This document shows positions 1 through 57,554 of a stretch of DNA of 64,000 nt, piece after piece. Both the position numbers and the translations under genes were made by a program. Source of the DNA: an uncultured Desulfatiglans sp. (lineage in GTDB: Bacteria > Desulfobacterota > DSM-4660 > Desulfatiglandales > HGW-15). Under the pieces are notes generated by a model. The model saw nothing but the letters and a program-made list of their open reading frames with translations, had not been told where the DNA came from and made no database searches. Each line of letters opens with the position of its first letter. Positions within the stretch are counted from its first letter, which is position 1. The stretch spans positions 32,543-96,542 of the forward strand of contig CAYWRH010000001.1 in assembly GCA_964460435.1 (NCBI GenBank), written 5' to 3'.

Positions 1-2
1 AA

Positions 3-2147
3 TTGACCACCTCTCTTTTCAGTGAATCATGGTACAGGGTATCAGCATTAAGGCCCCTTTTAAGAAGGCATGCCCAGGTGCATCACCATATATACAGGAA
101 AGAGGACTGGTATGTCCTGGAGGATCACTCCACCGGCAATTTCCACCGCTTTTCAAAGGAGGCATACTATATAATAGGTTTGATGGATGGGAAAAACAGC
201 CTCAGGGATATTTGGGAAACCGCTTGCAGAAATCTTGGAGATGACATGCCTACCCAGGATGAGGTGATAAGACTCTTATCCCAGCTCCATCAGGCTGATC
301 TGCTTCAGACAGATATCCCGCCTGATATTAGGGAGCTGTATGAACGCAGTAAGCTTTATAAGAAAAATGACATTGTCACCAAATTAAGATCACCACTTTC
401 GATAAAGATACCGCTTATCGATCCTGAGCAATTTCTTGAAAAAACCATCTTTTTAATCAGGCCCATATTCAGCATTACAGGCCTAATTATTTGCTCTATT
501 CTTCTTCTAATCTCATTATCCCTTGCAGTTATAAACTGGACAGAATTGACTATGAATCTTTCTGACAGGGTGCTGGCCCTTGAGAACATGTTTATTCTGT
601 GGCTGATTTATCCGGTGATCAAGGCCGTTCATGAGTTTTCACATGCCTATACAGTAAAATATTTTGGCGGCGAGGTGCATGACATGGGCATTATGCTGCT
701 AGTTTTTGTGCCTGTCCCCTATGTGGATGCATCGGCCTCCTCAGCCTTCAAAGAAAAGCACCAGAGGGTAATGGTTGGAGCAAGCGGCATTATGGCCGAG
801 CTAATGCTTGCGGCTATTGCCATGCTTGCATGGGTAAATGCAGAGCCGGGGCTCATAAGGGCGGTTGCATATAATGTAATGATAGTTTCAGGCATCTCCA
901 CAATCCTGTTTAATGGTAACCCACTGCTCCGATTTGATGCATATTATATCCTGTCAGATATTATCGAGATACCCAATCTGGCTGCACGTTCAGGCAGTTA
1001 TATCAGTTATCTCCTTAAAAGATATCTCCTGAAAATAAAGGATGCGATGAGCCCTGTAACAGCCAGGGGCGAGGCGGCCTGGTTCATCTTCTACGGCATC
1101 AGTTCATTCATCTACCGCATATTAATTACGATCAGGATCGCCCTTTTTATTGCAGGGAGGTTCTTTTTTGTGGGGGTTGGCCTTGCTATCTGGGGTATTT
1201 CAGGAATTCTTGTTATGCCGCTCATAAAAATAACAAAATTTCTCTTCATTGATTCTGAAATGCAGCGCAAGAAAATGAGGGCGGTTACCATAACAATACT
1301 CTTTCTCATATTAATTGTTTTGGCCCTGTTTATAATCCCTTTTCCATCCTCAACGGTCTCAATGGGTGTGCTGTGGCCGCCTGAAAATTCAAGGCTCTAT
1401 GTTGGTGCTGACGGATATATTGAAAATATTATTGTGGAGTCAGGCGTGAGAGTTCAAAAGGGGGAGCCCCTGGTAAAATGCATGAACAATGATCTTATAG
1501 CCAAAAAAAAGGAGCTTGATGCAATAAAAAAGGAATATGAAGTGAGATACAGCCTTGCAGAGACCAGAGATCGGACAGAGGCAAGGATACTGAAGGATGA
1601 GATATGGCGTATAACATCCGAGTTAAATAATCTGGATGAACAGATAGCAAACCTTATAATAAAAAGCCCGTCGGACGGCATATTCCTGCTTCCTGAAAAG
1701 GAGAGCATGATTGGTCTCTACCTCAGAAGGGGCACCCAGATCGGATATGTTGTGGATTTTAAGAGGGTGACAGCAAGGGTTGTTGCGGAGCAGAAGGCTA
1801 TTAACAGCATACGCACAAAAACAAAGGCGGTTGAGGTAATGATGATGCAAAGCCCTGGCAGATCATATCCAGGTCATATCCTGCGTGAAATCCCTGCGGC
1901 CTCAACCGAGCTTCCAAGCCTCGCCCTGAGCCTGGAAGGCGGAGGTGATCATGCCCTTAATCCCGCTGATGATAAAAAGATAAATGCATTTGAAAATCTT
2001 TTTCAACTGGAGGTTGCAATCGAAATGGCTCACATATCAACCATAGGTGAAAAGGTTCTTGTAAGGTTCAGGTATGATAATGAGCCGCTGTTTATTAGGA
2101 TATACCAGGGCATAAGACGGACATTCCTGAGCAGATTCAATATATGA
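3..2147 (+). CDS. Fusion protein: PqqD/RRE-like N-terminal domain + peptidase M50 (site-2 protease family) membrane core + HlyD-like C-terminal adaptor region (yydH/K16922-like putative peptide zinc metalloprotease)
   Basis: 714-aa ORF touching the window edge (TTG at 3; the true start may lie just upstream). The N-terminus WYVLEDHSTGNFHRFSKEAYYIIGLMDGKNSLRDIW looks like a PqqD-type winged helix. An HEFSH zinc motif and a second S2P motif NPLLRFDAYY sit in a multi-TM core. The C-terminal ~250 aa has the barrel-sandwich/coiled-coil pattern of HlyD adaptors. ATGA overlap with the next gene. Confidence 0.75.
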   Translation: MTTSLFSESWYRVSALRPLLRRHAQVHHHIYRKEDWYVLEDHSTGNFHRFSKEAYYIIGLMDGKNSLRDIWETACRNLGDDMPTQDEVIRLLSQLHQADLLQTDIPPDIRELYERSKLYKKNDIVTKLRSPLSIKIPLIDPEQFLEKTIFLIRPIFSITGLIICSILLLISLSLAVINWTELTMNLSDRVLALENMFILWLIYPVIKAVHEFSHAYTVKYFGGEVHDMGIMLLVFVPVPYVDASASSAFKEKHQRVMVGASGIMAELMLAAIAMLAWVNAEPGLIRAVAYNVMIVSGISTILFNGNPLLRFDAYYILSDIIEIPNLAARSGSYISYLLKRYLLKIKDAMSPVTARGEAAWFIFYGISSFIYRILITIRIALFIAGRFFFVGVGLAIWGISGILVMPLIKITKFLFIDSEMQRKKMRAVTITILFLILIVLALFIIPFPSSTVSMGVLWPPENSRLYVGADGYIENIIVESGVRVQKGEPLVKCMNNDLIAKKKELDAIKKEYEVRYSLAETRDRTEARILKDEIWRITSELNNLDEQIANLIIKSPSDGIFLLPEKESMIGLYLRRGTQIGYVVDFKRVTARVVAEQKAINSIRTKTKAVEVMMMQSPGRSYPGHILREIPAASTELPSLALSLEGGGDHALNPADDKKINAFENLFQLEVAIEMAHISTIGEKVLVRFRYDNEPLFIRIYQGIRRTFLSRFNI

Positions 2148-4147
2148 TCATGCCTTTCAAAAAAACAGTCTTCCCGCCAGCCTCCCATATTTTACGGCCC
2201 GAAAGGGCCGATATAAAGACCCATGGCCTGGATGCCTTTTTCAGAAATTCAATCAGATCCTTTTCATCATTTTTAAGGCTGCACACAAGAGGGATGAAAA
2301 GGTTTGTCAGATTGGTGGAACATTTTTCAGATGAGCTGAAAGGGTTTACTGAACAAGACTTAGGCTTAAAGGCGGATGAATTGAGGGAGAAAATAAAAAG
2401 GGAGGGGATGTCACAGGAAAATACAGCCCGTGCATTTGCCATAATAAGGGGGTTATCAGTTTATATTAAAGGACTGAGGCACTTTGATACCCAGATTATG
2501 GGCGGCAGAGCGCTGCTAAACGGCATGATAGCAGAGATGGAGACAGGAGAGGGCAAGACCCTTACCGCAACCCTTGCAGCAGGGACTGCTGCCCTCGCAG
2601 GCATAGCGGTTCACGTGATAACCGTAAATGATTACCTGACGCAGAGAGATGCTGAGTGGACCGGCCCTATATACAGGGCAATGGGGCTGACAGTAGGGTT
2701 TGTGATTCACGGTATGACGCCGGAAGAAAGACGGAGGGAATATGCAAAGGACATTGTATACTGCACCAACAAGGAGATAGTTTTTGACTACCTTAAGGAC
2801 TGGCTTGTCCTTGAAGGAAGGGTGAATAAACTGAAGCTTCATGCTGAATACCTCTATAACGGAAGCGAGAGGATAGAGAGGCTTCTTTTAAGGGGCCTTC
2901 ATTTTGCTATTGTAGATGAGGCAGACAGTGTTTTGATCGATGAGGCAAGGACACCGCTGATTATTTCCGGGCAGGGTGAAACAGCACAGGATGAACATGA
3001 ATTTTTTAAGCAGGCAATTGAACTTGCCGGACAGTTGATTGAGGGGAGGGATTTTCAGATCAGCATATCAGAGCATATGATCAGGCTTACTTACGCTGGA
3101 GAGGAGAGGGTTAATAATCTGGCAAAAGACCTTGGCCCGCTCTGGATGGGCAAGGTGAGGAGGATCGAAATGGTCAGGCTTGCCCTTTCAGCAATTCATT
3201 TTTTCAAGATTGATAAGCAGTACATATTGCGCGATGGCAAGGTGCAGATCATTGATGAATTCACAGGCAGGGTAATGTCTGACAGATCATATGAAAAGGG
3301 GCTGCACCAGCTTATAGAGGTAAAGGAGGGGTGTGAGCTTACAAAACAGAATGTAGTGCTGGCCCGCATCAGTTATCAGAAATTTTTCAGAAGGTATCTC
3401 AGGTTATCAGGGATGACCGGCACTGCCCGTGAGGTTAAGGGTGAACTAAGGAAGGTGTATGGTCTCAATATGGTAACAATACCCACATACAGGCCCAATA
3501 AAAGGAGGGTGTATCCTGACAGTGTGTTCCTTAGTGAGGCGCTAAAATGGGATGCTGTAACAAAAAGGGTGTTTGCCCTGCACCATGAGGGGAGGCCAGT
3601 GCTTATCGGCACACACTCTGTTGCCGCTTCTGAAAAGGCAGGAAGGCTTTTTGCTGAAAAGGGTCTCTGTTTCAGGATACTGAATGCAAAACAGGATAAA
3701 GAGGAGGCTGATATAATATCTCTGGCAGGAAAAGAGAAGAGCATCACCATTGCCACAAACATGGCCGGGCGCGGGGTTGATATAAAGCTTACCGAAGAGA
3801 GCAGGAGGCTTGGTGGGCTTCATGTTATACTTACAGAGCGGCATGATGCGGGCAGGATAGACCGCCAGCTTGCGGGTAGATGCGCACGCATGGGAGACCC
3901 CGGGAGCTTTGAGGCGATACTCTCTCTGGAAGATGAAATTCTTGAAGAGGGAAAAGGGGGGATATGGAGATGGATGACAATTGTATTTCCATTTAAAGAA
4001 ACATTGCCCTTTCGTTTTTTTTCAAAAAGGGCCATATTATCTGCACAGAAAAGGATGGAGCATATCCATTATGAAATGAGAAAAAATCTGCTCAAGGAAG
4101 ATGAGCGGCTTGGTAACATGCTCTCATTTTCAGGGCGATCCGAATAG
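2144..4147 (+). CDS. SecA-like ATPase (DEAD motor + reduced preprotein-binding region; lacks the C-terminal scaffold/wing/tail of canonical SecA)
   Basis: 667 aa. SecA hallmarks are present: MIAEMETGEGKTLTATL (Walker A), VITVNDYLTQRDAEW, AIVDEADSVLIDEARTPLIISG (DEAD box), TNMAGRGVDIKL, and RIDRQLAGRCARMGDPGS. The protein ends about 90 aa after NBD2, whereas housekeeping SecA is about 900 aa. Confidence 0.8.
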   Translation: MIMPFKKTVFPPASHILRPERADIKTHGLDAFFRNSIRSFSSFLRLHTRGMKRFVRLVEHFSDELKGFTEQDLGLKADELREKIKREGMSQENTARAFAIIRGLSVYIKGLRHFDTQIMGGRALLNGMIAEMETGEGKTLTATLAAGTAALAGIAVHVITVNDYLTQRDAEWTGPIYRAMGLTVGFVIHGMTPEERRREYAKDIVYCTNKEIVFDYLKDWLVLEGRVNKLKLHAEYLYNGSERIERLLLRGLHFAIVDEADSVLIDEARTPLIISGQGETAQDEHEFFKQAIELAGQLIEGRDFQISISEHMIRLTYAGEERVNNLAKDLGPLWMGKVRRIEMVRLALSAIHFFKIDKQYILRDGKVQIIDEFTGRVMSDRSYEKGLHQLIEVKEGCELTKQNVVLARISYQKFFRRYLRLSGMTGTAREVKGELRKVYGLNMVTIPTYRPNKRRVYPDSVFLSEALKWDAVTKRVFALHHEGRPVLIGTHSVAASEKAGRLFAEKGLCFRILNAKQDKEEADIISLAGKEKSITIATNMAGRGVDIKLTEESRRLGGLHVILTERHDAGRIDRQLAGRCARMGDPGSFEAILSLEDEILEEGKGGIWRWMTIVFPFKETLPFRFFSKRAILSAQKRMEHIHYEMRKNLLKEDERLGNMLSFSGRSE

Positions 4148-4160
4148 AAGGGGTTTAAAA

Positions 4161-4907
4161 ATGAGAACCGGGATATATAAAGGCACATATCAGATAGCTG
4201 TATTGGTTATGGCCCTGCTTTATGTGCAGATGGTAAGCGGAGAAGAATCATATTTTGACGGTATTATTGAGCCCAGTGAACTTGTGAAGGTGAGCAGCCC
4301 TGTTGAGGGCATCCTTGCACAGGTATTTTTTGACCGTGGCGACAAGGTAATTGTGGATGATGTAATTGCCTCTCTTAACTCTGACATTGAAAAGGCCTCT
4401 GCTGACCTGGCGCTGGCAAGGGTGGAATTCATGAGGCGAAAGGTGCAGAGGAACGAAGAGCTCTATAAAAAACAGCTTGTATCCATACATGACAAGGATG
4501 AGATGGAGACAGAGCTCACGATAGCAGAGCTCCAGCATAAAGAGGCTTTGGAAAAGGTTGAAATAAAAAAGATAAAGAGCCCGGTAAATGGCGTTGTTGT
4601 TGAGAGGTTTATCTCAAGGGGAGAGTATGTAAGTGACAAACCCATAATGTCTATTGCACAGATAGATCCCCTCTATGTAGAGGTTGTTATTCCTGCAGGG
4701 GAGTATGGAAGGATCAAAAAGGGCACATCAGCCAGAATAAAAATAGATAATCCTGTGTCACGGGAGCTGAAGGCAACAGTAAGCGTTGTGGATACAGTGA
4801 TAGACGCAGCAAGCAGCACATTCGGTGTACGCCTTGTGCTTCCTAACCCTGATTACTCCATACCCGCGGGGATAAAATGCAGAGTCCTTTTCCCTGCTAT
4901 GAAATGA
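4161..4907 (+). CDS. HlyD/RND-MFP-type periplasmic adaptor protein (short)
   Basis: I prefer ATG 4161, preceded by GAAGGGG, over the ORF-track start 4101, which overlaps the SecA-like gene. It has an N-terminal signal/anchor helix, a lipoyl-like motif VSSPVEGIL...GDKV, a coiled-coil, a second half-lipoyl IKSPVNGVV, and a beta-barrel tail. Confidence 0.7.
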   Translation: MRTGIYKGTYQIAVLVMALLYVQMVSGEESYFDGIIEPSELVKVSSPVEGILAQVFFDRGDKVIVDDVIASLNSDIEKASADLALARVEFMRRKVQRNEELYKKQLVSIHDKDEMETELTIAELQHKEALEKVEIKKIKSPVNGVVVERFISRGEYVSDKPIMSIAQIDPLYVEVVIPAGEYGRIKKGTSARIKIDNPVSRELKATVSVVDTVIDAASSTFGVRLVLPNPDYSIPAGIKCRVLFPAMK

Positions 4908-4950
4908 ACCTGTTTATTATCTGGTTCCTATGGTCTCCGAAGTGGTGAAG

Positions 4951-5092
4951 CTAATATTGTCCTCCCTTGGTGGGAGGTGTCAGGGGAGGGGGAGATGTAT
5001 TATTCGCCCTCATTCGTCATTCCCCGGCTGCGACCGGGGAATCCAGTTCTATTCCTTCAAGAAATTCCTCGCCCCGTGGTGGGAGAGGTCAG
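4951..5092. repeat. Cluster of REP-like intergenic hairpin repeats
   Basis: Two related copies of CCTC..GTGGGAG(A)GGT(G)TCAGG(T)GAGGGGGA lie at 4951-4983 and 5057-5092. They flank a hairpin GTCATTCCCCGG-ctgcga-CCGGGGAATCCAG (5006-5036). The same GTCATTCCCG...GGGAATCC motif recurs at 34094-34118. Confidence 0.55.
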
Positions 5093-5312
5093 GTGAGGGG
5101 GACAAGCTTATCACCTCAAAACATATTGACATACCATACGCCATTTTCCATAATGCCCAAGTCTTATCATTTTTTTTCATCAAGTATTAAGTAAGTTTAT
5201 ACTGGTATTTATACAGGTAGCAGTAGAATTTAACAGACCCCCACTAAAGGAACAATATTGGGGTGTAAGCAGATACTATTCAATAACTTGTTAAGTTAAT
5301 AGAGAAGCACTG

Positions 5313-6296
5313 ATGACCAAAGTCTCAGAAGTATATAAAAAGCTATTCCATTACACCACTTGGGATGGTCTTATCGGGATACTCGACAGCAAAAACATGT
5401 GGGCAACAAATTATAAATCACTAAATGACTATTCCGAAATTAATTTGTTTAGAGACAAACTGGTTTCATTAGTGCTCCCATATTCTAATGAAATAGTTAA
5501 AAAATTACTAAAGAAGTTCCCCAAAAGCATTAATGGAATCAATAAAAAAGGCGGTATTGAAAAAGTCATTCGCCATGAAGCAGAATTATTAGTTGATGCT
5601 CATTACAGTGCTTTAGGGGATGATATTTATATTCTTTCATTTTGTGGGGAGCATTCCAGTGATGCTATTAATGAGAATGGTTTGCTAAGCCAATGGCGCG
5701 GGTATGGAAGTGGAGGAGGCGCTGCAATAATATTCGACACGGAAAAATTGGAAAAAATATTGGATCAAGAATCAATCCGATACGAATACAGTGCAATGTA
5801 TATCGCCGATGTTGTGTATAGTGATGATGAAAAAAAATTTAATGAGGAAATATCAAAAGATCTTACCGTCATTGCAGATGTTGTTAAAAATATTCTTGAC
5901 TTTGATACATTTTTCAATAGGAACCATGTTGATGCCTCAAAAGCTTATCATCCTTTTGTTAGGTGCATTAGTAGATATAAACATTATGGTTTTAGTGAAG
6001 AAAACGAGGTGAGAGTGATAGCTTTGCCAACAATAATCAATGAGGAGATTGAAAGGCTCGCCAATAAAGACGGAGTGAAATTGCGACCAGAAAAAGAAGT
6101 AAAGATCCGTAAAAAATGTGGTCAAGAAGTTAAATATATTGAGCTATTTAATTCGGACGACATCGAACTTCCAATTGATAAAATAATTATTGGCCCTCAT
6201 GCAGAAAAGAAAGCTAGGTTAGAAATATTATCTAAAAGGCTTGAAAAGGAAAATATAAAAATAACTATTTCTGACATTCCTTTTATATGTCAATAG
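5313..6296 (+). CDS. DUF2971 family protein
   Basis: 327 aa. The pattern is typical of DUF2971: N-terminal LFHYTTWDGLIGILDSKNMWATNYKSLNDYSE, central ILSFC...LSQWRGYG..GGAAIIF, and late YKHYGFSEENEVRVI. It lies in an AT-rich region. Confidence 0.6.
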   Translation: MTKVSEVYKKLFHYTTWDGLIGILDSKNMWATNYKSLNDYSEINLFRDKLVSLVLPYSNEIVKKLLKKFPKSINGINKKGGIEKVIRHEAELLVDAHYSALGDDIYILSFCGEHSSDAINENGLLSQWRGYGSGGGAAIIFDTEKLEKILDQESIRYEYSAMYIADVVYSDDEKKFNEEISKDLTVIADVVKNILDFDTFFNRNHVDASKAYHPFVRCISRYKHYGFSEENEVRVIALPTIINEEIERLANKDGVKLRPEKEVKIRKKCGQEVKYIELFNSDDIELPIDKIIIGPHAEKKARLEILSKRLEKENIKITISDIPFICQ

Positions 6297-6403
6297 ATAC
6301 AATTTGAAACTTAACCTATCGCCTTACAAGGAATTTTATTACACCTTGTTACACACAATCCTGTAAGCTTTTCGTTCGGCGGTGGAGTATACGAGGAGGG
6401 TAT

Positions 6404-6829
6404 TTGGTGGAGTTAGAGATCAAAAGGAACTGCTCCGATGTAGGTTGGAAGACAGTATCGGAAACTTTGAAACTCCTTGGAATGGCATACTACGATCCCG
6501 ATATTCACAGAAGAGCATTTGAAGCGAGCCATACTACCGTGTTTGTCTATATTGATAGCCGGTTGATCGGTTTTGGACGGGCGATTTCTGATGGTGTCTA
6601 CCAGGCAGCCATCTATGACGTAGCTGTCATACCTGAATTCCAGAAGAAGGGCATCGGAACTAAAATAATGAAGAATATTTTGGATGCTCTTCCTCAATGC
6701 AATATAATTTTGTATGCATCACCTGGGAAAGAAGGATTTTACAGAACACTTGGATTGCGAAAAATGCGGACGGGAATGGCACGTTTTATAAGGGCGGAAG
6801 ATATGAATGCAAAAGGCTTCACTGAGTGA
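6404..6829 (+). CDS. GNAT family N-acetyltransferase
   Basis: 141 aa with the acetyl-CoA binding motif VIPEFQKKGIGTKIMKNILDAL. TTG start as given by the ORF track. Confidence 0.75.
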   Translation: MVELEIKRNCSDVGWKTVSETLKLLGMAYYDPDIHRRAFEASHTTVFVYIDSRLIGFGRAISDGVYQAAIYDVAVIPEFQKKGIGTKIMKNILDALPQCNIILYASPGKEGFYRTLGLRKMRTGMARFIRAEDMNAKGFTE

Positions 6830-6904
6830 ATGGGCCAGTGTGTACAAGTAGGACAGTCATGTTTTATGTTTGCTTAATACAAATAAAATAAAAGGGGCTT
6901 AAGA

Positions 6905-7192
6905 ATGGTAAAAATCATATTAATAACATTATTAACAATATCATTTGCCGTTATTAATTATGCCAATGGGATAGAAAGTAAAGGTATAGGTTATGGCCCG
7001 AAACAGGAAAATAATATTGAGTTTAAATATGGTGTCGCAATCCAAAATGGTAAAGCATTATATATTGATCCTCATGAATTGGAAGGAGTTGCTCTTATTG
7101 CTATGTCTGAAAAATCAATAAAAAATTCAAAAACTGAAATTCTAAAAGATTCTCCTAAGAAACTTGAAGCTGATCAATGGGTTCTATACTGA
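6905..7192 (+). pseudogene. 5' part of a small exported protein gene; its 3' end runs into the IS110-family element
   Basis: It has a signal-peptide-like N-terminus (MVKIILITLLTISFAVINYANG). From about 7150 the ORF overlaps the transposase 3' end on the opposite strand. A matching open frame continues after the IS (see 8897-9160). Confidence 0.4.
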
Positions 7193-8546
7193 TTTGAAAA
7201 CCCAATTGTTTGGCTTTTTTGATCATATTATTAATAACGTGTGTTTTGTATTTTTCGTCGTAATATAGATGGCCTGGATCAAGATAAGTTCCGCCATCCT
7301 TCCATAGGTGATAAAATATTCTTGCCAATTTATGAGCCGTTGCGGTGATTGCTTCCGGTGCTCCCAGTCTTGCACGCATGCGACGATAATATCCTCCAAG
7401 GGCACTTAAACTATGAGATAGACTCTGAGCCGCCATTCTAAAAGCTGCTGAAGCACGATTAACGACTTTTTTTGTTTTACTGCTCTTGATTCTGCCTCCT
7501 GTGATGCGGTTATTTGGACAAAGACCAAGCCATGAACAGAAATGTTTTTCCGATGGAAAGGCAGTAGGATCAATGCCTACCTCTGAAATGATAGTATGCA
7601 CAGAAACAACATCCAGCCCATCAATCTGTGTAAAATCAACACCACTGATCCTGTATAAATGTGTACGGAGATCAAAACGAGGTGCATTTCCTTTTGGTTT
7701 TTTATTACTCTTCGTAGATGCTGGCAGAGGATAGGATTGGAGGTCTATTTTAGAGTCTACTTGGCTCAAATATTGTTCTATCTCATGGTCACACATTTCG
7801 ATTTTTTGCTGATAAACATCATAGAGTTCAACGGCCTGCCTCAACGAAAAGAGATGTTCTTGTCGATAATCTCCTTCCAGTGCCTTGGCAATCTGTTCCA
7901 CGCTGCTTTTAATGCGAGGATCTCTCATTTGAGCCAGTTTTATAGGATCGCGTTCACCAGCCAGGATAGCCTTTATTATACACATTCCGGTCAGCCCAGT
8001 AATATTACTTATTACCTTGTGCAATTGTATGTTCATCTCAACAAGGGCCTTTTGCATATGCTGGACATGAGATGCTGCATAACGAATAAGATTGTCTCGA
8101 TGTCGCCAGAAGCTGCGAAGCACACAAATAGATTCTTCAGGCCGGAAAGACCCTGATAAAAGTCCATAGGTATGTAACCGTTGAAGCCATTGACAATCCG
8201 ATACATCGGTTTTCCGACCAGGGACATTTTTTACATGTCTGGCATTGACCAGTTTAACTTCAAACCCTTGTTTCTCCAGAATCTGGTACAAAGGAATCCA
8301 GTAAACACCTGTCGATTCCATTACCACAGTTTGGATATTACATTCCTTAAGCCAATCAGACATAGCATTTAAATCAGCCGTAAAACATTTAAAACTGCGA
8401 ACAGGCTGTTCATCCCTGTCTTCCGGTACAGCTATCCAGTGCTCTTCTGAGCCAACATCAATGCCTGCTGCGTTTGGATTTATAATTTTAAATGATTTAC
8501 GCTTCGATTGCTTAGGTGTTTTCTTTTTGTTCTCTCGTTTTGGCAT
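7155..8546 (-). CDS. IS110 family transposase (DEDD/RuvC-like N-domain + C-terminal Tnp domain)
   Basis: 463 aa. Motifs seen: AAGIDVGSEEHW, VVMESTGVYWIPLY, LVNARHVKNVPGRKTDVSDCQWL, and the C-terminal FCSWLGLCPNNRITGGRIKSSKT. Confidence 0.9.
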   Translation of the reverse strand: MPKRENKKKTPKQSKRKSFKIINPNAAGIDVGSEEHWIAVPEDRDEQPVRSFKCFTADLNAMSDWLKECNIQTVVMESTGVYWIPLYQILEKQGFEVKLVNARHVKNVPGRKTDVSDCQWLQRLHTYGLLSGSFRPEESICVLRSFWRHRDNLIRYAASHVQHMQKALVEMNIQLHKVISNITGLTGMCIIKAILAGERDPIKLAQMRDPRIKSSVEQIAKALEGDYRQEHLFSLRQAVELYDVYQQKIEMCDHEIEQYLSQVDSKIDLQSYPLPASTKSNKKPKGNAPRFDLRTHLYRISGVDFTQIDGLDVVSVHTIISEVGIDPTAFPSEKHFCSWLGLCPNNRITGGRIKSSKTKKVVNRASAAFRMAAQSLSHSLSALGGYYRRMRARLGAPEAITATAHKLARIFYHLWKDGGTYLDPGHLYYDEKYKTHVINNMIKKAKQLGFQISIEPIDQLQVS

Positions 8547-8850
8547 ATTTTTCAGTCCCTCACTTTGTTAGAAGATATATACGCTCTGGCCCGGGTCGGT
8601 AACTATGCACTCTCCTAAACGGGATCGTGCTCCGAAACTGCCAGATCACGTCGCCAATGCTACAACCGAATACGCCCGGAACCATGCTAAACTACGGGTC
8701 CTGTGACACCATTGTTCTTCCGGCCTTGACTGCCAGTGCGCAATTTATCTTCTATAATATGCCAAACCACCTCGCAAGTTTCTTTCATCTATAACACCAA
8801 AGCGAAGCGCCGGGGTCATTTGCTAAACTAATAATTTCTACTGAGGGCAA
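8547..8850 (-). ncRNA. Candidate IS110-type bridge (guide) RNA locus in the 5' non-coding end of the IS
   Basis: ORF-free and GC-richer than the flanks, located immediately upstream of the transposase start. It contains short inverted repeats, for example CCGGAA (8676-8681) / TTCCGG (8718-8723). The call rests on position and family knowledge only; no fold was computed. Confidence 0.3.
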
Positions 8851-8896
8851 TGTCATATATGTTTATGATTCAAAAAGAAAAGACCCATACTTCGAA

Positions 8897-9160
8897 ATGC
8901 TAGAAACAGAAAGAAAATATTTTTATAGAATCGAAGACAATAAAATGTATATTAGTAAAGATAATAAAATATGGAAAAAGGTAAAGGTGGGTATAGTGTC
9001 TATAAACGATGAGAAAATTCCCGAAGACAAAGAGGGGCCTGTATTCATGACTATCAGCCTTGAAAGTGAATATTTTAAAGGGGAATATGATTTAATTGGA
9101 ACTCCTGATTCAGAACCAATTAGTGGGACATATAGTGAAAAGAATGGAGTAAACCCTTGA
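8897..9160 (+). pseudogene. 3' part of the small gene interrupted by the IS
   Basis: The frame stays open upstream of ATG 8897 back into the IS edge (...STEGNVIYVYDSKRKDPYFEMLETE...). It has the same phase modulo 3 as ORF 6905 and a similar AT-rich, Lys/Glu/Ile-rich composition. Confidence 0.35.
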
Positions 9161-20702: not shown

Positions 20703-21635
20703 ATGGGTGAAAGAGACGGGGATATTTCTATAAGTATCCAAAAGGTCAGACATATTTATAAAGGAGGAAACGCTGCCATCAACGGGATAAGCATGGATAT
20801 CCATACCGGGCTTTTCGGTCTGCTGGGCCCCAACGGTGCAGGAAAAAGCACGCTCATGCGCATTATATGCAGTCTGCTTGTACCCACAGAGGGGCGTGTT
20901 ATTGTGGGGGGATTTGATGTGGTAAAGGAGCGCAGGCATTTAAGGAGGCTTCTGGGGTATCTTCCGCAGGATTTCAATGCATGGCGTCTCCACAGGGTGG
21001 AAGAGGTGCTTGGAACACTCGCTACCCTTTCAGGCCTTGAGAATAACACGGAAAGAAAAGAGAGGGTATTTGAAATCCTTGAACTTGTAGGATTAAAGGA
21101 TGTCTCCCACAGAAAGGTAAAAAGCCTATCCGGCGGTATGGTAAGAAGGCTCGGCGTGGCCCAGTCCCTTATACATAATCCTAAGATACTGATTGTTGAT
21201 GAACCCACAGTCGGGCTTGACCCTGAGGAGCGTATACATTTCAGGCAGCTCATGGCGAAACTCGGCAAAGAGAGGATCATTATCCTTTCCACCCACATTG
21301 TAGGTGACCTTGGGAGCGGGTGTCATGACCTCGCCCTTATTGACCGGGGCAGGCTGGAGTTCAGGGGGAGCCCTGAAAAACTGATAGAAAAGGCAAAGGG
21401 GTTTGTATTTGAGATGCATCTTGAAGGCACAAGGAGTGAAGTCGCTGAACAGTATGAGATCGTATCCCAGGAACAGAGACTGGGGCGAACCATCATCAGG
21501 GCAGTATCCAGGATGGGCGAGATCCCTGATGGCGCAGTCCAGGTTGATAACCCCACACTTGAGGAGGCATATCTCGCCTTTATGGCCTCAAACAGCGTGA
21601 AACAGGCGGTAAAGGGAGGGGAGGCGCAGTCATGA
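20703..21635 (+). CDS. ABC transporter ATP-binding protein (ABC-2 subfamily type)
   Basis: Walker A GPNGAGKST, Q-loop YLPQD, signature LSGGMVRR, Walker B ILIVDEPTVGLD, H-loop STHIV. ATGA overlap with the next gene. Confidence 0.9.
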   Translation: MGERDGDISISIQKVRHIYKGGNAAINGISMDIHTGLFGLLGPNGAGKSTLMRIICSLLVPTEGRVIVGGFDVVKERRHLRRLLGYLPQDFNAWRLHRVEEVLGTLATLSGLENNTERKERVFEILELVGLKDVSHRKVKSLSGGMVRRLGVAQSLIHNPKILIVDEPTVGLDPEERIHFRQLMAKLGKERIIILSTHIVGDLGSGCHDLALIDRGRLEFRGSPEKLIEKAKGFVFEMHLEGTRSEVAEQYEIVSQEQRLGRTIIRAVSRMGEIPDGAVQVDNPTLEEAYLAFMASNSVKQAVKGGEAQS

Positions 21636-24600
21636 TGAACATAAAATCAATTCTGTCCATAGTGCGGGCTGAAACACTTGTAATAAGACGTCTGGCCAGA
21701 TACTGGCTGTTTCTCTCATTTTCATACCTGTTTGTGTTAATTGCATTTATCTATTACTCTGCCCTGCACGGCCTTTATTCATCGCATTCCGCATCAGTGG
21801 GGTTAATAAGCCCCAGGTTTCTTGTGAGTTCAATAGCAGGCGTGTTCTACCTCGCTATCTACTCTATAGGCGTGATCTTTCTTGCATTTGATGTGAGGGC
21901 AAGGGATCTGAGGGAAAGGATGCATGAGGTGCTTGATTCGCGTCCTTACACCAACATGGAGCTTGTTATCGGCAGATTTTTGGGTGTCCTGATACCCGCA
22001 TGGGTGCCCATGCTTCTCCTGATAGTGCTGATACAGCTATTGGGATTTCTGCTAAAGACCAGCGGTGTGCCTATTGGTGAGCCTGCCCAGATGAGATCCC
22101 TCCTTTCATTTGTGTTTCTGATAGGGCTACCCTCTTTCGCATTTATAATCTCGATTGTCTTTCTTGTAACCCTTCTTGTAAGGAACAGGCTGGTTTCCTC
22201 TATCATACTTGTGCTGTTGATAGCTGCAAGCTATGCAGGGATGTATTTTTTACCTAACTACAAGGCGATGGTTTTTGATTTTCTTGGGTTAATGCAGTCA
22301 GGATATCCATCAGACATTACAGCATCATTAATGCCTCTTACGGGCCTCATACACCGCGCAGCAATACTCCTTGCCTCCCTTGGAATGCTTGGCATATGTG
22401 CGGCAGTGCACCCCCGCCTTGATGATGGATCACGCTGGAAAACAGGTTTTACAGGCGCAATAATCGTAGCAGTAGCAGCGGTTATAATAGGTGGCATATT
22501 TGCAGGCAACCTGAATGATATAAAAGAGCAGGAGAGATGGCTTAGGGCACAAATGGAATACCCAAATGGCCCTGCGCCTGATATTACAAAAATCACAGGC
22601 AGGGTGCTAATAACACCAGGAAAGGATCTTAACCTTGAAATAAAGATTACATTCAAGGCCCCTGAAGAGGGTGAGATAAAAAATGCCCTGTTTACCCTTA
22701 ATCCTGGACAGAGGATAGTGGAACTCCTTGACAGTTCTGGTAAACCATTAAGCTATAAGCATGAAGAGGGCATACTTGATATTACCCTGCCCAATGCCCT
22801 GTCGCCGGGTGAGGAGGCTGTAATAGGTCTCAAAACAAAGGGCATACCGAATAAACACTTTGCATATCTTAAAAGCTCTATAAACCCCCTTAAGCTTGAG
22901 AGAAAAAATTCAAATACTATCCTTCTTGGTAATGAAAACTATCTGTTTGACAGTAATTTTGTTGCCCTTATGCCTGCAATCCGGTGGCTGCCAATGTCAG
23001 GTGTGGAGAACAGCATGGAAAAACAGCAGAACAACCGCGTGGATTTTTTCAATGTTGATCTTACTGTTGGCGTGCCAAAGGGGTGGCTTGTCGCAGGGCC
23101 TGGAAGGCGCAACAGGGCAGGTGAGGATAATAGATTTGACCTTTACCGGTTTGCTCCCCCCTCTGTTGTGCCGGAGGTGGCCCTTCTCGCATCTGAGTAT
23201 GAGAGCCGTTCATATGAAACTGAAGGCATACTCATGGAGCTTCTTGTCCACAAAAAACATATGAAAAACCTTGATGTGCTGGCTGACACAAAAGAGAAGA
23301 TCAGGGAATATATTGACACAAGGATAAAGGATGCAAAGGAGGCAGGGCTAACCTACCCCTATGACGGCCTTACCCTTGTGGAGGCGCCGACTGTTTTACG
23401 GACATATGGCGGCGGGTGGCGTCTTGATACGGTTCAGTCAATGCCCGGCATTATGCTCCTAAAGGAGCTCTCTTTGCCCACGGCCAGGTTTGACTCCGCA
23501 TTCAGGAACCCTGACAGCTTTAAAAATAGGGAGGGTGGCATAGTCAAGGCCAAGTGGGACAGGCTTCAAACCTATTTCAAACAGGATTTTTCAGGGGGAA
23601 ATATATTTACAGGCACAGCAAGGAACTTCTTCCTGTTCCAGACATCTGCAGAGGGGCCAGAAGGCATGCCTGTCAATTTTGTAATGGATACCCTGTCATC
23701 TCTTGTGCTGGCAGACACAAAGGGGTATTTTTCAGCCCATATATTTGCAGAGGGGAATTCAGTAAATGAGATCATTCAGAATGTGCTTGTAAGCTATTTC
23801 CAGCTCAGAAACGCAGGGATACAGGACACCATCCTGAACTCTACAATACGCACAAGGACATCTCGCCCTGCAGTGTGGGAAAAGGCGCTTGAGGCATCAC
23901 TAAAGGACACAGACCCCTGGAAAGATCCATCTGATACGGTAGATTACCTTATATTAAAGGGTTATGCAGTTGCAGACTCCATATATAAGACCCTTGGAAG
24001 GGAAAAGACAGCCGCATTTCTTGCATCCGTAAGAAGGAATCATACAGGAGGCCAGTTTACGGTTTCAGACATGAAAAGCGCCTTAAAAGGGCAGGGTTAT
24101 GACATGGATGCATCCCTTGGCGACTGGCTGGGCAGCACAGGGCTTCCGGGTTTTGTTGTGCAGGATGCAAAGGGATACCGTGTAGCAGATGATGAAAACG
24201 GAAGCCCCAGGTATCAGCTCCTTTTTACAGTAAGAAATGATGAGCCTGTTCCGGGGGCCTTTAACTTTGCCTATTATTATACAGCGCAGGATCAGAACCC
24301 TGAGTTGATATCAGGTGAGACTATTAACCTCGCAGGGAGGCATGCTATCCAGTACGGCACAATAGTATCAAGGCTTCCTTCCATGTATTTTCTTGCCCCT
24401 GTGCTCTCCTATAACAGAGGCACCTTTGAATTTAAGATGGAAAATATTAATTCTGACAAGATAGTCGATGCGGAGATTATTGAAGGGGTCAGAGATATCC
24501 CCTGGGCGCTCCCGGCTCCCTCATCAATAGTGGTGGATGACCTGGACGAGGGGTTCACTATTGTTAATGAAAAAGAGGAAGGTAAAGGGCTCAGGGTTAA

Positions 24601-25072
24601 GGCGAAGGGAAAAAGCAGGGACACGAAACTGGATCAGGGCTTGCCCTATACCTCCAGTAATGTATTGCCCGGAGGATTCGGCCTGCCAGCAGAATGGACA
24701 CGCATAAGCAATGGCATGAGCTATGGAAAATATAGGCATACAGCCGCTTTTATCAAGAAGGGCGAGGGGGCAAAAAAGGCTCTTTTCAGCGCTGAGTTGC
24801 CACAGGCAGGCGCATGGGACATGGAGATTTTTATACCCATGAAGAATATCTTTCCTAACAGGAAATGGGGTACATGGCATGGTGTTGTGACAGATAAAAA
24901 TGGAGATAAACATCAGGTTGAGTTTGATTCAAAGGCAGGAGGCGAAGGGTGGAACCTGGCAGGTAAATATGATTTGCCACAGGGTAAATGCACCCTGGAA
25001 CTCTCTGATCTGACCGATGGGGATATGGTGGTGGCAGATGCCATACGATGGACACCTTCTGCCGGAAAATGA
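21632..25072 (+). CDS. Large membrane protein: ABC-2-type permease-like N-terminal TM domain (~300 aa) fused to an ~850-aa extracytoplasmic domain
   Basis: 1146 aa. The N-terminus has six or more hydrophobic helices and an ABC-2-like DVRARDLRERMHEVLDSRPY segment. The remainder is hydrophilic with no HExxH. The extreme C-terminus (...LSDLTDGDMVVADAIRW) is reminiscent of golvesin-type beta-sandwich domains, but this recall is weak. Confidence 0.6.
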   Translation: MMNIKSILSIVRAETLVIRRLARYWLFLSFSYLFVLIAFIYYSALHGLYSSHSASVGLISPRFLVSSIAGVFYLAIYSIGVIFLAFDVRARDLRERMHEVLDSRPYTNMELVIGRFLGVLIPAWVPMLLLIVLIQLLGFLLKTSGVPIGEPAQMRSLLSFVFLIGLPSFAFIISIVFLVTLLVRNRLVSSIILVLLIAASYAGMYFLPNYKAMVFDFLGLMQSGYPSDITASLMPLTGLIHRAAILLASLGMLGICAAVHPRLDDGSRWKTGFTGAIIVAVAAVIIGGIFAGNLNDIKEQERWLRAQMEYPNGPAPDITKITGRVLITPGKDLNLEIKITFKAPEEGEIKNALFTLNPGQRIVELLDSSGKPLSYKHEEGILDITLPNALSPGEEAVIGLKTKGIPNKHFAYLKSSINPLKLERKNSNTILLGNENYLFDSNFVALMPAIRWLPMSGVENSMEKQQNNRVDFFNVDLTVGVPKGWLVAGPGRRNRAGEDNRFDLYRFAPPSVVPEVALLASEYESRSYETEGILMELLVHKKHMKNLDVLADTKEKIREYIDTRIKDAKEAGLTYPYDGLTLVEAPTVLRTYGGGWRLDTVQSMPGIMLLKELSLPTARFDSAFRNPDSFKNREGGIVKAKWDRLQTYFKQDFSGGNIFTGTARNFFLFQTSAEGPEGMPVNFVMDTLSSLVLADTKGYFSAHIFAEGNSVNEIIQNVLVSYFQLRNAGIQDTILNSTIRTRTSRPAVWEKALEASLKDTDPWKDPSDTVDYLILKGYAVADSIYKTLGREKTAAFLASVRRNHTGGQFTVSDMKSALKGQGYDMDASLGDWLGSTGLPGFVVQDAKGYRVADDENGSPRYQLLFTVRNDEPVPGAFNFAYYYTAQDQNPELISGETINLAGRHAIQYGTIVSRLPSMYFLAPVLSYNRGTFEFKMENINSDKIVDAEIIEGVRDIPWALPAPSSIVVDDLDEGFTIVNEKEEGKGLRVKAKGKSRDTKLDQGLPYTSSNVLPGGFGLPAEWTRISNGMSYGKYRHTAAFIKKGEGAKKALFSAELPQAGAWDMEIFIPMKNIFPNRKWGTWHGVVTDKNGDKHQVEFDSKAGGEGWNLAGKYDLPQGKCTLELSDLTDGDMVVADAIRWTPSAGK

Positions 25073-25085
25073 AAAAGGAGCTTAA

Positions 25086-26186
25086 ATGAAAGAGAATTGT
25101 AGATTCAGGATACTGGTAATTGTTTGCATCGCCCTTTCAGGTTTTCTTTCAGGGTGTTCACGTGAGGAGAGCAGTGATGACAAGATAGAATTTCTTGTGC
25201 CTGTAACCGTTACAAAGGTGGGCAAAATGGATGTTGAAGAGAGGATAACAGCCACAGGCACCCTTAGAACCAGCAAGGTTGCAAGGCTTGAGGTGGAGAC
25301 TGGCGGTATCCTTGAATTCCTGACAAACAGGGATGGTAAACGGTATCGCGAAGGAGACAGCGTAAAGGCAGGCGATGTGATTGCCCGTATCACTGGTGAT
25401 GATGTGCGCCTTGCAGCCAGAAAGGATGCAACCCTCCAGAGGTATGAGACAGCAAAGGATGAATATGAATCAACAAAAAAACTCTATGATGACGGGTTTA
25501 AAAGCAAGTCCGAGCTGCTCAAGATGCAGTCAAGCCTGGAGGATGCAAGGGTAGATTATGAAAAGAGCCTGAATTCGGAAAAACGCAGCAAGCTCACCAC
25601 GCCAATAGATGGCATTATCCTGAGGCTTGCAAGGGACAGGGATAACCAGAACCAGCCACTTGCAGTCGGTCAGTATGTGAGCCCGGGCTTTGAGGTGGCC
25701 CGCATTGCCCCCACAGATACCCTTATTGCAGATGTAGACCTTGTTGCCCAGGACGTGGCAAGGGTATCTGAGGGTCTTGCTGCAAGGGTTAAGCATTATG
25801 CATGGAAGGATGAAGAGTTTGAAGGCAAGGTGACAAGGCTTGATCCTGTTATAGACCCTGTCACAAGGGCTCTCAAGGCAGAGGTAGAGGTTATTAATCA
25901 TGAGGGTAAACTCAGGCCAGGCATGTTTGTAGAGGTAACCATTATAAAGGAGCAGAGAAAGAATGTCCCGTGTATCCCCCGTGAGGCTGTAGTTAACAAA
26001 GGGGGAAAGTGGGTAGTATTTGTCTTAAACGGACAGAGGGTTAATAAAAAAGAGGTGGTATTAGGGCTGGGTGATGACAATATTGTGGAAATCCGGTCAG
26101 GGCTCTCAGAGGGGGAAAGGGTTGTCACTAGGGGGCTCGAAACACTTGATGATCAGGTACGCGTCCGCGTGACAGGAACCAATTAA
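25086..26186 (+). CDS. Efflux RND periplasmic adaptor (MFP) lipoprotein
   Basis: Lipobox LSGC. Lipoyl halves (KAGDVIARI / LTTPIDGII), a coiled-coil hairpin, and beta-barrel and membrane-proximal domains typical of the AcrA/HlyD_D23 family. Confidence 0.85.
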   Translation: MKENCRFRILVIVCIALSGFLSGCSREESSDDKIEFLVPVTVTKVGKMDVEERITATGTLRTSKVARLEVETGGILEFLTNRDGKRYREGDSVKAGDVIARITGDDVRLAARKDATLQRYETAKDEYESTKKLYDDGFKSKSELLKMQSSLEDARVDYEKSLNSEKRSKLTTPIDGIILRLARDRDNQNQPLAVGQYVSPGFEVARIAPTDTLIADVDLVAQDVARVSEGLAARVKHYAWKDEEFEGKVTRLDPVIDPVTRALKAEVEVINHEGKLRPGMFVEVTIIKEQRKNVPCIPREAVVNKGGKWVVFVLNGQRVNKKEVVLGLGDDNIVEIRSGLSEGERVVTRGLETLDDQVRVRVTGTN

Positions 26187-29100: not shown

Positions 29101-29253
29101 GCCCTGGGTATAGGTGAAGCGGCCCAGCTAAGGGCACCTATGGCCATAACAATAATAGGGGGCATCACTGCATCTACGCTTACCTCCCTGTTTGTAATAC
29201 CATGCCTCTATCTGATACTCGACAAACTGCGATTCAAACGGGCCAGGGTATGA
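26191..29253 (+). CDS. RND efflux permease (AcrB/AcrD/AcrF family), subunit 1
   Basis: 1020 aa with a 12-TM, two-large-loop architecture. N-terminus RRPVAVTVVAAAIIMLGWISLKGLPIDLLPD, TM4 GMLVDNAIVVIES, and a C-terminal RLRPIIMTSATTILALFPLAL motif. Confidence 0.9.
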   Translation: MLALARLATRRPVAVTVVAAAIIMLGWISLKGLPIDLLPDIKSPTILVSVKSGDRPPTEMERLYGKQVEQRLFTVKGIRSINQVARAGNLIARVTFEWDADMDMALVDIQKAIASISADEDVDEVVVRRQDPRELPVISIGLVAKEALPGLTELKKIAERMIAPAFEQLEGVAEVRVTGGREDEIRIIADRYLMEAHSITMAELENRIRAANIDISAGTLEEGDNVYLVRGISRFNNSEDIARVVVKYDRDSSEKSIPVRVGDIAKVIVTDKKISDLVLVNGKEGVSLSIYKEAGANTVKVSRDVKKALTELNKELKNMEFSVVSDEAALVEDAISDVETSAVIGIILAVIVLWYFLRSLSSTVIVASAIPVSLMATLFAMHYAGQSLNLMTLGGMALGAGMLVDNAIVVIESIFRRKEAGDSPEEAAANGTAVVAGAIISSTLTTIVVFLPVLFIRGLAARLVSGISFTVIVSLVASLGVAVFLIPALAKWFLPKDTIKEVNPGKTKIEAIVTGLLKHPYLVVAVSFIIVAVSVFSLMGLKSELMAPNDPRQFSLRITGVPGQRVEATKNMVAVIEDIIRQAAGDDLKAILSEVGRLPEDDHFIREELTGENRARILVNLSTDGKTAGQVVKAASPVISGLKNIEVSWELGTSAIARAIGSTGPPIQVEISGHSATDLRKAADAVLSKLTTLPELWNVRSSFEGGAPELHIVLNRTLCDGLGVDIEMVSRVIESALDGKVVTEMTTGDEEKDVVLKVEQGADIGLKSIPFTTSKGERLTIGDIADFVNVDGALEIFRRDQKRVAMVTARIREGVKYPLAKAATESAINSMDLSPGLSMRLTGEEEERAKTFSELEWAGIISVILVFMVLAGTFESFLHPFTVLSSIPFALIGVAAVLSPSGRPIGIMEALGLIVLTGIAVNDAILMVQTAGQLIKEGAERKAALARAAAIRLRPIIMTSATTILALFPLALGIGEAAQLRAPMAITIIGGITASTLTSLFVIPCLYLILDKLRFKRARV

Positions 29254-54474: not shown

Positions 54475-54476
54475 AG

Positions 54477-57400: not shown

Positions 57401-57554
57401 CATATGAAGTGCGTACGCTCAGGGTAGGCAGTTCAACACTCGGAAGCATATCGAGCCGGAGCCGGCTTAATGACACTGCCCCAAGTATGACTACTATAAG
57501 CGTAACCATAGTTATTACTATGGGGCGTTTTACGCTGAATTCCGCAAGAGTCAT
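54477..57554 (-). CDS. RND efflux permease (AcrB family)
   Basis: 1025 aa. [41 protein letters not shown]4 [13 protein letters not shown], and C-terminal [21 protein letters not shown]. Confidence 0.9.

Follow-up and report, generated by a model that had tools for sequence, protein, structure and literature searches.

How a SecA-type motor ATPase comes to be encoded between two HlyD-type adaptors, one of them fused to an M50 intramembrane protease, and what such a machine might move, are the questions raised by positions 3-4907 (+) of the DNA described here. This window is a stretch of 64,000 nucleotides from an uncultured Desulfatiglans sp. (contig CAYWRH010000001.1). The three co-directional genes at its start encode a PqqD-like/M50/HlyD fusion, a short SecA paralogue and a small HlyD adaptor, and the domains given to them in the initial annotation were recovered by open reading frame (ORF) calling with Pfam and NCBIfam searches. 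On balance, the somewhat favoured function is that of an exporter resembling the type I secretion system (T1SS), dependent on TolC and devoid of an ATP-binding cassette (ABC) transporter, in which the SecA paralogue drives the export of a giant adhesin. The most likely cargo is the adjacent giant calcium-binding surface protein, rather than a small peptide. The association of this giant cargo with the machine of SecA, M50 and membrane fusion protein (MFP) components is very probable.

A truncated operon beside a giant gene

The trio is the distal half of a conserved operon that is truncated by the edge of the window. The initial annotation had remarked that the cluster touches this edge, and the missing genes were found upstream on the source contig. 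There, the order is a giant RTX protein with a class-A C-terminal tag (9,406 aa), a DUF3467 protein (107 aa, match E=1.4e-21), a GAF-HlyD protein with a transmembrane (TM) segment, the fusion, whose PqqD-like part resembles a RiPP recognition element (RRE; RiPP, ribosomally synthesised and post-translationally modified peptide), the short SecA and the small HlyD. The identical SecA gene is found on 10 contigs, of which five places were read for context. Every contig read that reaches far enough carries, in the same orientation, the 9,406-aa gene call, the 107-aa DUF3467 protein and a 622-aa HlyD protein. The latter consists of a cytoplasmic N-terminal half, one TM segment and a HlyD domain, and a GAF domain is detected in its orthologues in three further loci (L006-L008). 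The stop of the fusion gene and the start of the SecA gene share an ATGA, an overlap of 4 bp. A promoter and terminator scan of positions 1-5400 told little: counts barely differed from shuffled sequence, no internal terminator stood out, and the sole strong promoter-like site (5126-5154, 11/12 matches) lies 3' of the module. There is no ABC or resistance-nodulation-division (RND) transporter within the three genes, and no ABC transporter in positions 1-9000 by ORF and Pfam scan.

One genome per species was scanned with a profile of the M50-HlyD fusion. At least 587 genomes hold a homologue, and the 80 loci returned span Desulfobacterota, Alpha-, Beta- and Gammaproteobacteria, Nitrospirota, Nitrospinota, Latescibacterota and Acidobacteriota. 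Custom hidden Markov models (HMMs) were then run on the stop-to-stop ORFs of 84 non-redundant loci, with the loci having enough sequence as denominators. The gene order is conserved in these 84 loci from at least nine phyla. The GAF-HlyD gene lies upstream of the M50 fusion in 72/72 loci, SecA directly downstream of it in 71/74 and the small HlyD downstream of SecA in 65/70, which bears out the expectation of synteny across taxa. DUF3467 is present in 47 of 70 loci. Carriers include cultured Vibrio, Methylorubrum, plasmids of Rhizobium/Mesorhizobium, and sulfate reducers; full-length M50-HlyD homologues are found in 13 plasmid or chromid records of PLSDB. The absence of an ABC transporter, pointed out from the window alone, is general in the family: ABC exporters occur in 4/84 loci and never inside the operon. 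Genes for TolC-like proteins are found in six of the 84, in each case within the operon, and likewise in plasmid loci of Methylosinus and Thalassospira.

Clustering of the neighbouring ORFs of the 84 loci returned the giant protein as the only other recurrent family (52/84). Lesser neighbours are an O-methyltransferase (11 loci) and radical-SAM proteins (5 loci). The same clustering gave no conserved short precursor or tailoring genes and no conserved SecY2 or accessory Sec genes nearby. A same-strand ORF of at least 1,000 aa ends just upstream of the module in 38/48 loci; all 38 contain at least five RTX-like motifs, and 37 of them extend beyond the fetched sequence. Giant genes elsewhere encode 4,033-18,499 aa, and three distant members share the full order with giant genes of 18,499, 15,183 and 6,369 aa (two complete Desulfobacterota genomes and one Methylomirabilis). 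In the 9,406-aa protein of the source contig, the last 1,598 aa hold six RTX calcium-binding stretches (2e-25).

The upstream giant ORFs end in a C-terminal tag of about 50 residues, in which an 'AGxxGW' is followed by about 33 residues and an 'R[FW]xRW', with two nearly invariant tryptophans. An HMM of this tag, termed class A, matches 33 non-redundant loci, 13 of them outside the model-building set, and nothing else among 7,411 ORFs. Its matches all lie at the very C-terminus of the ORF that precedes the module, 0-41 residues short of its end, and in the cargo of the source contig the tag lies 17 residues from the end. The linkage of the module to tagged giant proteins is tight and ancient. 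A search of the tag profile against 5.8 billion proteins returned four short fragments only. The possibility that the tag is a membrane anchor was rejected, because the mean Kyte-Doolittle hydropathy stays below 1.3 in every 19-residue segment of the last 1,787 aa. In other clades a second tail type, class B ('LVFDxExGxF'), is found, which is mutually exclusive with class A, and some cargos have neither.

At the other end, an LEPR-XLL N-terminus, by match to NF012209 or by PGAP name, is present in all nine readable cargo N-termini of relatives. That of the Methylosinus cargo scores 30.2 bits against NF012209 (LEPR-8K; cut-off 17). The motif is also found in the Thalassospira and Mesorhizobium cargos, and in Alisedimentitalea it lies in frame just 5' of a misannotated start. 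It recurs in giant genes that lie downstream of the module (L060) or divergent from it (L026). The LEPR-XLL leaders contain a basic stretch, lack a hydrophobic core and so are unlike Sec or Tat signals.

The DUF3467 proteins of the family are about 105 aa in length and 45-67% identical across phyla, with a core motif RWDDSxMxSxYANVCNVSSTREEVTLLFGTNQ (L001 5435-5758 and orthologues). Sequence and profile searches gave no relative in the PDB, and hhalign detected no similarity to SecB (probability 0.3%, with an E. coli SecB query). Genes of the SapC family were also observed, inside the module in Pseudosulfitobacter (L093 22260-23081) and beside it in Alisedimentitalea (L092 25558-26355). This family also flanks the giant genes of Chlorobium chlorochromatii (2026 Chlorochromatium preprint).

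A set of related loci has no SecA. The Thalassospira marina plasmid pCSC3H3 (L095) and a second locus (L011) carry a giant gene, in some cases DUF3467, GAF-HlyD, M50-HlyD and HlyD, with or without TolC, and no SecA in between. An E. coli IncFIA/FIB plasmid (L096, NZ_CP081687.1, 44829-64580) and AZO_p6 of Azospirillum lipoferum 4B (L097) encode a giant protein of Ig-like or beta-strand repeats, TolC, a small MFP, a HlyD protein and a PqqD-like/M50/HlyD fusion with intact motifs; genes for SecA, GAF and DUF3467 are absent from these two loci. The E. coli plasmid cargo starts with 'MTTIKNRRLRPRAHRFALESRQLFDGAAL', an LEPR-type leader, and this variant is found in 17 E. coli and 8 Citrobacter plasmid records. 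What stays constant is therefore a giant cargo with a leader, together with the RRE-M50-MFP fusion, the extra MFPs and TolC. The clade seen in the window is marked by the SecA paralogue, the GAF domain and DUF3467.

Motor, protease and adaptors

The initial annotation took the SecA gene for a paralogue rather than the housekeeping secA, and this view is upheld by a truncated architecture, by the NCBIfam scores and by a conserved short length. Pfam matches on the 667-aa protein are SecA_DEAD (1e-99), SecA_PP_bind (1e-24) and P-loop_SecA (7e-46); the match to SecA_SW, the wing and scaffold model, covers 27 residues only. The protein aligns to residues 31-603 of the 841 of B. subtilis SecA, and the canonical C-terminal ~200-250 residues are absent. 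It is without the helical wing domain, the two-helix finger and the C-terminal tail of canonical SecA. The arginine-finger region is invariant in 41 homologues, and both ends carry conserved sequences specific to the family, PPATHxLRPER at the N-terminus and LSFSGRxE at the C-terminus. In the AlphaFold2 (AF2) model (pLDDT 79, pTM 0.73), the last helix spans residues 621-656 and is followed by a disordered tail with the invariant LSFSGRxE.

The scores of the paralogue lie under the cut-offs of the housekeeping SecA models (TIGR00963, 594.7 vs 800; NF009538, 591.4 vs 814) and of the SecA2 models (TIGR03714, 460.9 vs 930; TIGR04221, 420.1 vs 725; TIGR04397, 536 vs 1085; NF012136, 394.4 vs 1100). 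Among the best 120 clusters of the family, identity is 52-84% and nearly all members are 660-685 aa long. Most sources annotate the protein as 'preprotein translocase subunit SecA'. RefSeq/PGAP misnames it 'prepilin peptidase' (Methylosinus, Pseudosulfitobacter) or 'DEAD/DEAH box helicase' (Pontibrevibacter, Mesorhizobium), with P0093 affected too, and this wrong naming of the family is systematic.

The TTG start of the fusion is supported by homologues that are also 714 aa long and align from residue 1. Its closest named relative is in a Desulfatiglans metagenome-assembled genome (MAG), at 84% identity. In a library clustered at 50% identity, 4,308 representatives belong to the M50-HlyD family at E<=1e-30, and almost all of the best 150 are 712-720 aa long. 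Pfam detects HlyD_D23 in the fusion (6e-8), and has matches below the cut-offs to Peptidase_M50 (7e-5, score 22.6 vs a gathering score of 27.2) and to PqqD (PF05402, E=0.0038, score 18.0 vs 23.4). PF05402 is precomputed on several homologues, and PGAP calls relatives 'PqqD family protein'. The NCBIfam model of the daptide intramembrane metalloprotease matches residues 20-395 (1.4e-44), with a score far under the model cut-off.

The AF2 model of the fusion (pLDDT 77) has an N-terminal domain of beta3-alpha3 order that fits the PqqD/RRE topology (E24-31, E34-41, E47-50, H52-59, H67-81, H85-97), a helical membrane core with a beta-hairpin of the site-2 protease (S2P) type at 227-242, and an MFP part with an alpha-hairpin at 496-549 (27+26 residues). 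Motifs and model together place an HExxH in a TM helix and an NxxPxxxxD within a polytopic core with a beta-hairpin, as in the M50 family. The spacing of the second motif, which is also found in the E. coli and Azospirillum plasmid relatives, is one that we take to equal that of RseP and SpoIVFB. Foldseek with the whole model gave MacA, MexA and AcrA, in complexes with TolC or OprM, as the best PDB matches, which are dominated by the MFP part and bear on it rather than on the RRE or M50 domains. A loop at aa 631-664 (window 1893-1994) is modelled with very low confidence and is yet highly conserved (PAASxxLPSLALSLEGGGxxALDP, with the GGG invariant); it is a candidate periplasmic contact site for a partner or cargo.

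The small adaptor is of the RND/HlyD type (TIGR01730, 5e-35). It has 248 aa if translated from 4161, or 268 aa from an ATG at 4101 (ORF 4101-4907). The former is the likelier start because it has an AAGGGG Shine-Dalgarno sequence, lies 13 nt past the SecA stop and gives a length that fits the 244-249 aa of homologues. The features of the module and of related loci are collected in Table 1.

Table 1. Coordinates of the module (positions in the window) and data on related loci (locus named where positions are given)
Feature	Position	Strand	Basis or remark
PqqD-like/M50/HlyD fusion, 714 aa, TTG start	3..2147	+	ORF, Pfam, NCBIfam, AF2 model
PqqD/RRE-like domain, cytoplasmic, aa ~20-100	60..302	+	Pfam PqqD below cut-off, homologue annotation, AF2 topology
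M50 S2P-like polytopic membrane domain	aa ~140-420 of fusion	+	Pfam, NCBIfam, motifs, AF2
HEFSH zinc-binding motif, aa 210-214	630..644	+	H210, E211 and H214 invariant in 45 homologues
NGNPLLRFD, aa 304-312, second S2P motif NxxPxxxxD with third zinc ligand	912..938	+	N304, P307 and D312 invariant in 45 homologues
Further TM helix of fusion	aa 424-444	+	AF2 model
Periplasmic HlyD/MFP part with alpha-hairpin, aa 446-714	1338..2144	+	Pfam, conservation, AF2, Foldseek
Short SecA paralogue, 667 aa: nucleotide-binding domain (NBD) 1, preprotein cross-linking domain (PPXD), NBD2, 36-residue scaffold-helix stub	2144..4147	+	Pfam, NCBIfam, alignment, AF2
Walker A TGEGKT, aa 134-139	2543..2560	+	Invariant in 41 homologues; aligned to B. 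subtilis SecA
DEAD box/Walker B, aa 258-261	2915..2926	+	D258, E259, A260 and D261 invariant in 41 homologues
PPXD, SecA polypeptide clamp, aa 284-392	2993..3319	+	PF01043, E=1e-24
Small HlyD/MFP adaptor with N-terminal signal or anchor (IAVLVMALLYVQMV) and alpha-hairpin	4161..4907	+	TIGR01730, homologue lengths
Misannotated short SecA genes	L090 22222-24138; L093 23074-25098; L094 22139-24124; L100 14174-16135		RefSeq/PGAP names
Methylosinus giant gene, 8,847 aa			TolC after small HlyD; PLSDB annotation
Alisedimentitalea giant gene, 8,148 aa			PLSDB annotation
Pseudosulfitobacter giant gene, 12,918 aa			'LEPR-XLL domain-containing protein'; PLSDB annotation
Pontibrevibacter giant gene, 10,603 aa			'LEPR-XLL'; PLSDB annotation
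Thalassospira giant gene, 4,033 aa			'LEPR-XLL'; TolC present; no SecA; PLSDB annotation
Mesorhizobium giant gene, 10,518 aa			PLSDB annotation

Downstream of the module, the spacer at 4950-5110 contains two copies of a GC-rich element (cctcccttggtgggaggtgtcagg..., cctcgccccgtggtgggagaggtcagg...) around a ccccgg/ccgggg hairpin; the pair may be an operon end marker or REP-like repeats. Directly 3' of the module, positions 5313-8546 encode a DUF2971 protein, a GNAT acetyltransferase and an IS110-family transposase (7155-8546, -), and the GC content falls from ~0.46 to ~0.36 across this region. The transposase and the GC drop fit a mobile or recently rearranged edge.

Further into the window, a complete tripartite RND operon (52954-58771, -) encodes an MFP, AcrB and a TolC-like outer-membrane efflux protein (OEP; 52954-54474). 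The genome therefore has TolC-family channels that the module could borrow. A 1,600-aa ORF at 29202-34004 (+) joins AcrB/RND (ACR_tran, aa 20-1046, 4e-149) to a C-terminal ABC ATPase (ABC_tran, aa 1324-1467, 6e-29), a fusion that looks unusual. On its 5' side lie an RND gene (26191-29253), an unannotated 366-aa ORF (25086-26186) and the gene of a Golvesin_C protein (21632-25072).

Relation to described systems

A study by Kamneva, Poudel and Ward (2015; PLoS One 10:e0129066, PMC4452313) described 'secondary SecA_DEAD domain proteins' without wing and scaffold. Their locus comprises genes for GAF-HlyD, a weak M50-HlyD, SecA_DEAD and a HlyD/biotin-lipoyl protein, without an ABC transporter and sometimes with an OEP gene nearby; the example given is META1p2402-2399 of Methylobacterium extorquens AM1. 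The in silico proposal, made without experiments, was that SecA takes the place of the ABC ATPase and the TM domain of M50 serves as the pore. The module described here has the same traits, with SecA_DEAD and PPXD present without wing and scaffold and with M50-HlyD, GAF-HlyD and small HlyD adjacent. The four core genes are the same and stand in the same order; nothing essential differs, and the window adds a member from a Desulfatiglans-like Desulfobacterota MAG.

Unlike the present analysis, the 2015 study covered far fewer taxa and gave no cargo, DUF3467, PqqD-like domain or terminal signals; RTX, hemolysin, cadherin and DUF3467 have no mention in it. The searchable literature yielded no functional work on the module, DUF3467 or LEPR-XLL, and no published link of the module to giant cargo, DUF3467 or terminal tags. 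The initial annotation's statement that no characterised system of this composition was known thus stands as regards experiment and falls as regards composition, which was published in silico in 2015. The four-gene core and the idea of SecA in place of the ABC ATPase are already published; the explicit candidate cargo and its signals are added here.

The locus resembles the classical T1SS (HlyB-HlyD-TolC; LapBCE) in a giant RTX cargo without a Sec-type signal, in MFPs with alpha-hairpins, in a probable TolC-family partner and in an adjacent cargo gene. It differs from it in having no ABC protein, three MFP proteins (one with M50 and RRE, one with GAF) and a SecA-type motor, and the cargo of the family has an N-terminal LEPR-XLL leader beside or instead of a C-terminal signal. 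The accessory SecA2 of Gram-positives and mycobacteria is likewise a second, non-essential SecA for special and often very large surface proteins, with a reduced C-terminus. However, SecA2 keeps the scaffold, the two-helix finger and most of the wing and uses SecY or SecY2, whereas the present paralogue is without those parts, has MFP and M50 proteins as its partners and is found in diderm hosts.

A homologous RRE-like/HExxH half (1.4e-44) and the concept of recognition, cleavage and export are shared with the RRE and M50 peptidases of RiPP systems (daptide, NF041824; YydH/LiaK, NF058609) and with peptidase-containing ABC transporters (PCATs). The differences are scores under the equivalog cut-offs, the fusion to an MFP, a cargo of ~4,000-18,500 aa and a SecA-like motor instead of an ABC protein.

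A preprint by West-Roberts et al. (2023) reported SecA_DEAD and PPXD, without wing and scaffold, inside giant proteins of Omnitrophota and Actinobacteria and proposed a role in their own export. In those proteins the SecA domain is internal and highly divergent, whereas the SecA described here is a separate, well conserved protein of ~664 aa in an MFP/M50 operon. A 2026 preprint on Chlorochromatium reported a horizontally acquired second secA (Cag_1676) that is co-expressed with giant symbiosis proteins and is a possible member of the short-SecA family; a search for Cag_1676 in the supplement of the preprint gave no result.

The proposed export route and its alternatives

A T1SS-like route powered by a SecA-like ATPase, as suggested from the window alone, is still a plausible reading, now with a giant substrate, and Kamneva et al. 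had arrived independently at the same core idea. In the route proposed here, the three different MFPs would build a periplasmic conduit to a TolC-type outer-membrane channel, whose gene belongs to the operon in some genomes and would lie outside it in the source genome. The polytopic M50 domains may form or guard the inner-membrane entry. The cytoplasmic PqqD-like RRE domain would recognise a signal at one end of the cargo, for which the basic LEPR-XLL N-terminal leader is the best candidate. The M50 site would cleave this leader, as is suggested by its homology with RiPP leader peptidases and by the example of C39-containing ABC exporters. The SecA paralogue, with its ATPase and clamp kept and the canonical docking to SecY lost, would energise transport and feed the unfolded chain, and Ca2+-driven folding of the RTX repeats outside the cell may help to pull the chain out. 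The GAF-HlyD protein is likely to be a regulatory gate, and DUF3467 is likely to be an adaptor or chaperone between cargo and motor.

Several points weigh against this route. Loci without SecA exist; either the MFP/M50/TolC core can do without SecA, or those genomes encode the ATPase at another site. No TolC gene adjoins the module in the window, and the nearest OEP gene (52954-54474) sits in the RND operon. The C-terminal tail types vary by clade; the LEPR-XLL leader is known from relatives, and the N-terminus of the contig's own 9,406-aa gene lies beyond the readable sequence. We know of no demonstration that an M50 domain acts as a protein-conducting channel. The direction of transport, the terminus that bears the signal, the cleavage, the docking partners and the dependence on TolC are points that we infer. 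The pairwise identities of the four core proteins co-vary over 62 loci (r = 0.76-0.89, with 0/500 permutations reaching the observed value), a correlation that is also expected from shared phylogeny. In M. extorquens AM1 in exponential phase, the module genes are barely expressed except GAF-HlyD (PMC4452313).

The export route can be taken further, to a claim held only tentatively and rated somewhat short of an even chance. The module would then define a distinct, unnamed secretion pathway of diderm bacteria for giant LEPR-XLL/RTX proteins (4,000-18,500 aa). A short SecA would stand in the place of the ABC protein on an MFP/M50 platform, the RRE would read the leader and M50 remove it, and DUF3467 and the C-terminal tag would be dedicated parts. 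The SecA domains fused into giant proteins of Omnitrophota would be a variation on the same theme.

The alternative that survives best, although it is unlikely, is a two-step route. Here the paralogue would act as an accessory motor of the SecA2 kind through SecYEG, after which the M50/MFP/TolC components would carry the protein across the outer membrane and M50 would cut a leader held in the membrane. The PPXD and both nucleotide-binding domains are intact, the SecA2 structures 6sxh and 4uaq match the paralogue, and the relatives without SecA keep the M50/MFP/TolC core and an LEPR-type cargo, suggesting that inner-membrane crossing can be supplied from outside the locus. Known accessory SecA2 proteins have reduced C-terminal regions, which also counts in favour of this route. 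However, the parts of SecA that engage SecY, namely the two-helix finger, the helical wing and the scaffold, are those lacking in the paralogue. The LEPR-XLL leaders are basic but have no hydrophobic h-region of Sec signals, and the 84 loci have no conserved SecY2 or accessory Sec genes nearby.

A little less likely still is a module for processing or regulation, in which the giant RTX protein would be exported by an ABC-type T1SS encoded elsewhere and the locus would handle its maturation, its retention or release, or quality control. The parallel would be LapD/LapG and LapA, with GAF as the sensor of a signal, M50 as the protease and SecA as an unfoldase or extractor. The C-terminal RTX repeats do resemble those of classical T1SS substrates, the GAF domain suggests control by a signal, and the M50 site appears from its motifs to be catalytically intact. 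The SapC family, a companion of the classical T1SS in Campylobacter fetus, is present in two relatives. Against these stand three MFPs with TolC-docking alpha-hairpins and the TolC genes embedded in operons, which favour a conduit over a regulator, and the lack of an ABC exporter linked to the locus.

The initial annotation had envisaged a cleaved peptide as the substrate. In this reading, a small ribosomal peptide of the RiPP or bacteriocin kind, with its precursor encoded upstream, would lose its leader and be exported. This is improbable, although the RRE-like and M50 half is homologous to the daptide and YydH/LiaK proteases and a few neighbourhoods contain the radical-SAM (5/84) or O-methyltransferase (11/84) genes noted above. 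Upstream on all contigs are GAF-HlyD, DUF3467 and the giant gene, with no precursor or tailoring set, and the recurrent neighbour is the giant RTX/LEPR-XLL protein. DUF3467 is the only small conserved ORF family and, unlike a hypervariable precursor, is 50-65% identical across phyla, and the scores against NCBIfam RiPP proteases are far under their cut-offs. A divergent or truncated housekeeping secA placed beside efflux adaptors by chance is very improbable, despite the name 'preprotein translocase subunit SecA' in most sources, as the protein scores below every NCBIfam SecA and SecA2 cut-off (594.7 vs 800, for example), keeps its ~664-aa length in more than 100 clusters, has a fixed synteny, has plasmid-borne copies in the 13 PLSDB records and coexists with canonical SecA in the complete genomes analysed by Kamneva et al. 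(PMC4452313).

The export of a giant adhesin by an ABC-less machine thus remains the preferred reading, and the locus remains of interest because it is widespread and experimentally untouched, and because a candidate cargo with candidate signals can now be named for it. The E. coli IncF variant could serve as a model system. For the export of proteins of at least 10,000 aa by bacteria, the ABC-less SecA/M50/MFP module and its LEPR-XLL/RTX protein offer a concrete pair of machine and cargo. If the reading is true, it would provide a new energising principle for tripartite secretion, a function for the LEPR-XLL motif of NCBIfam and the first functional context for DUF3467.

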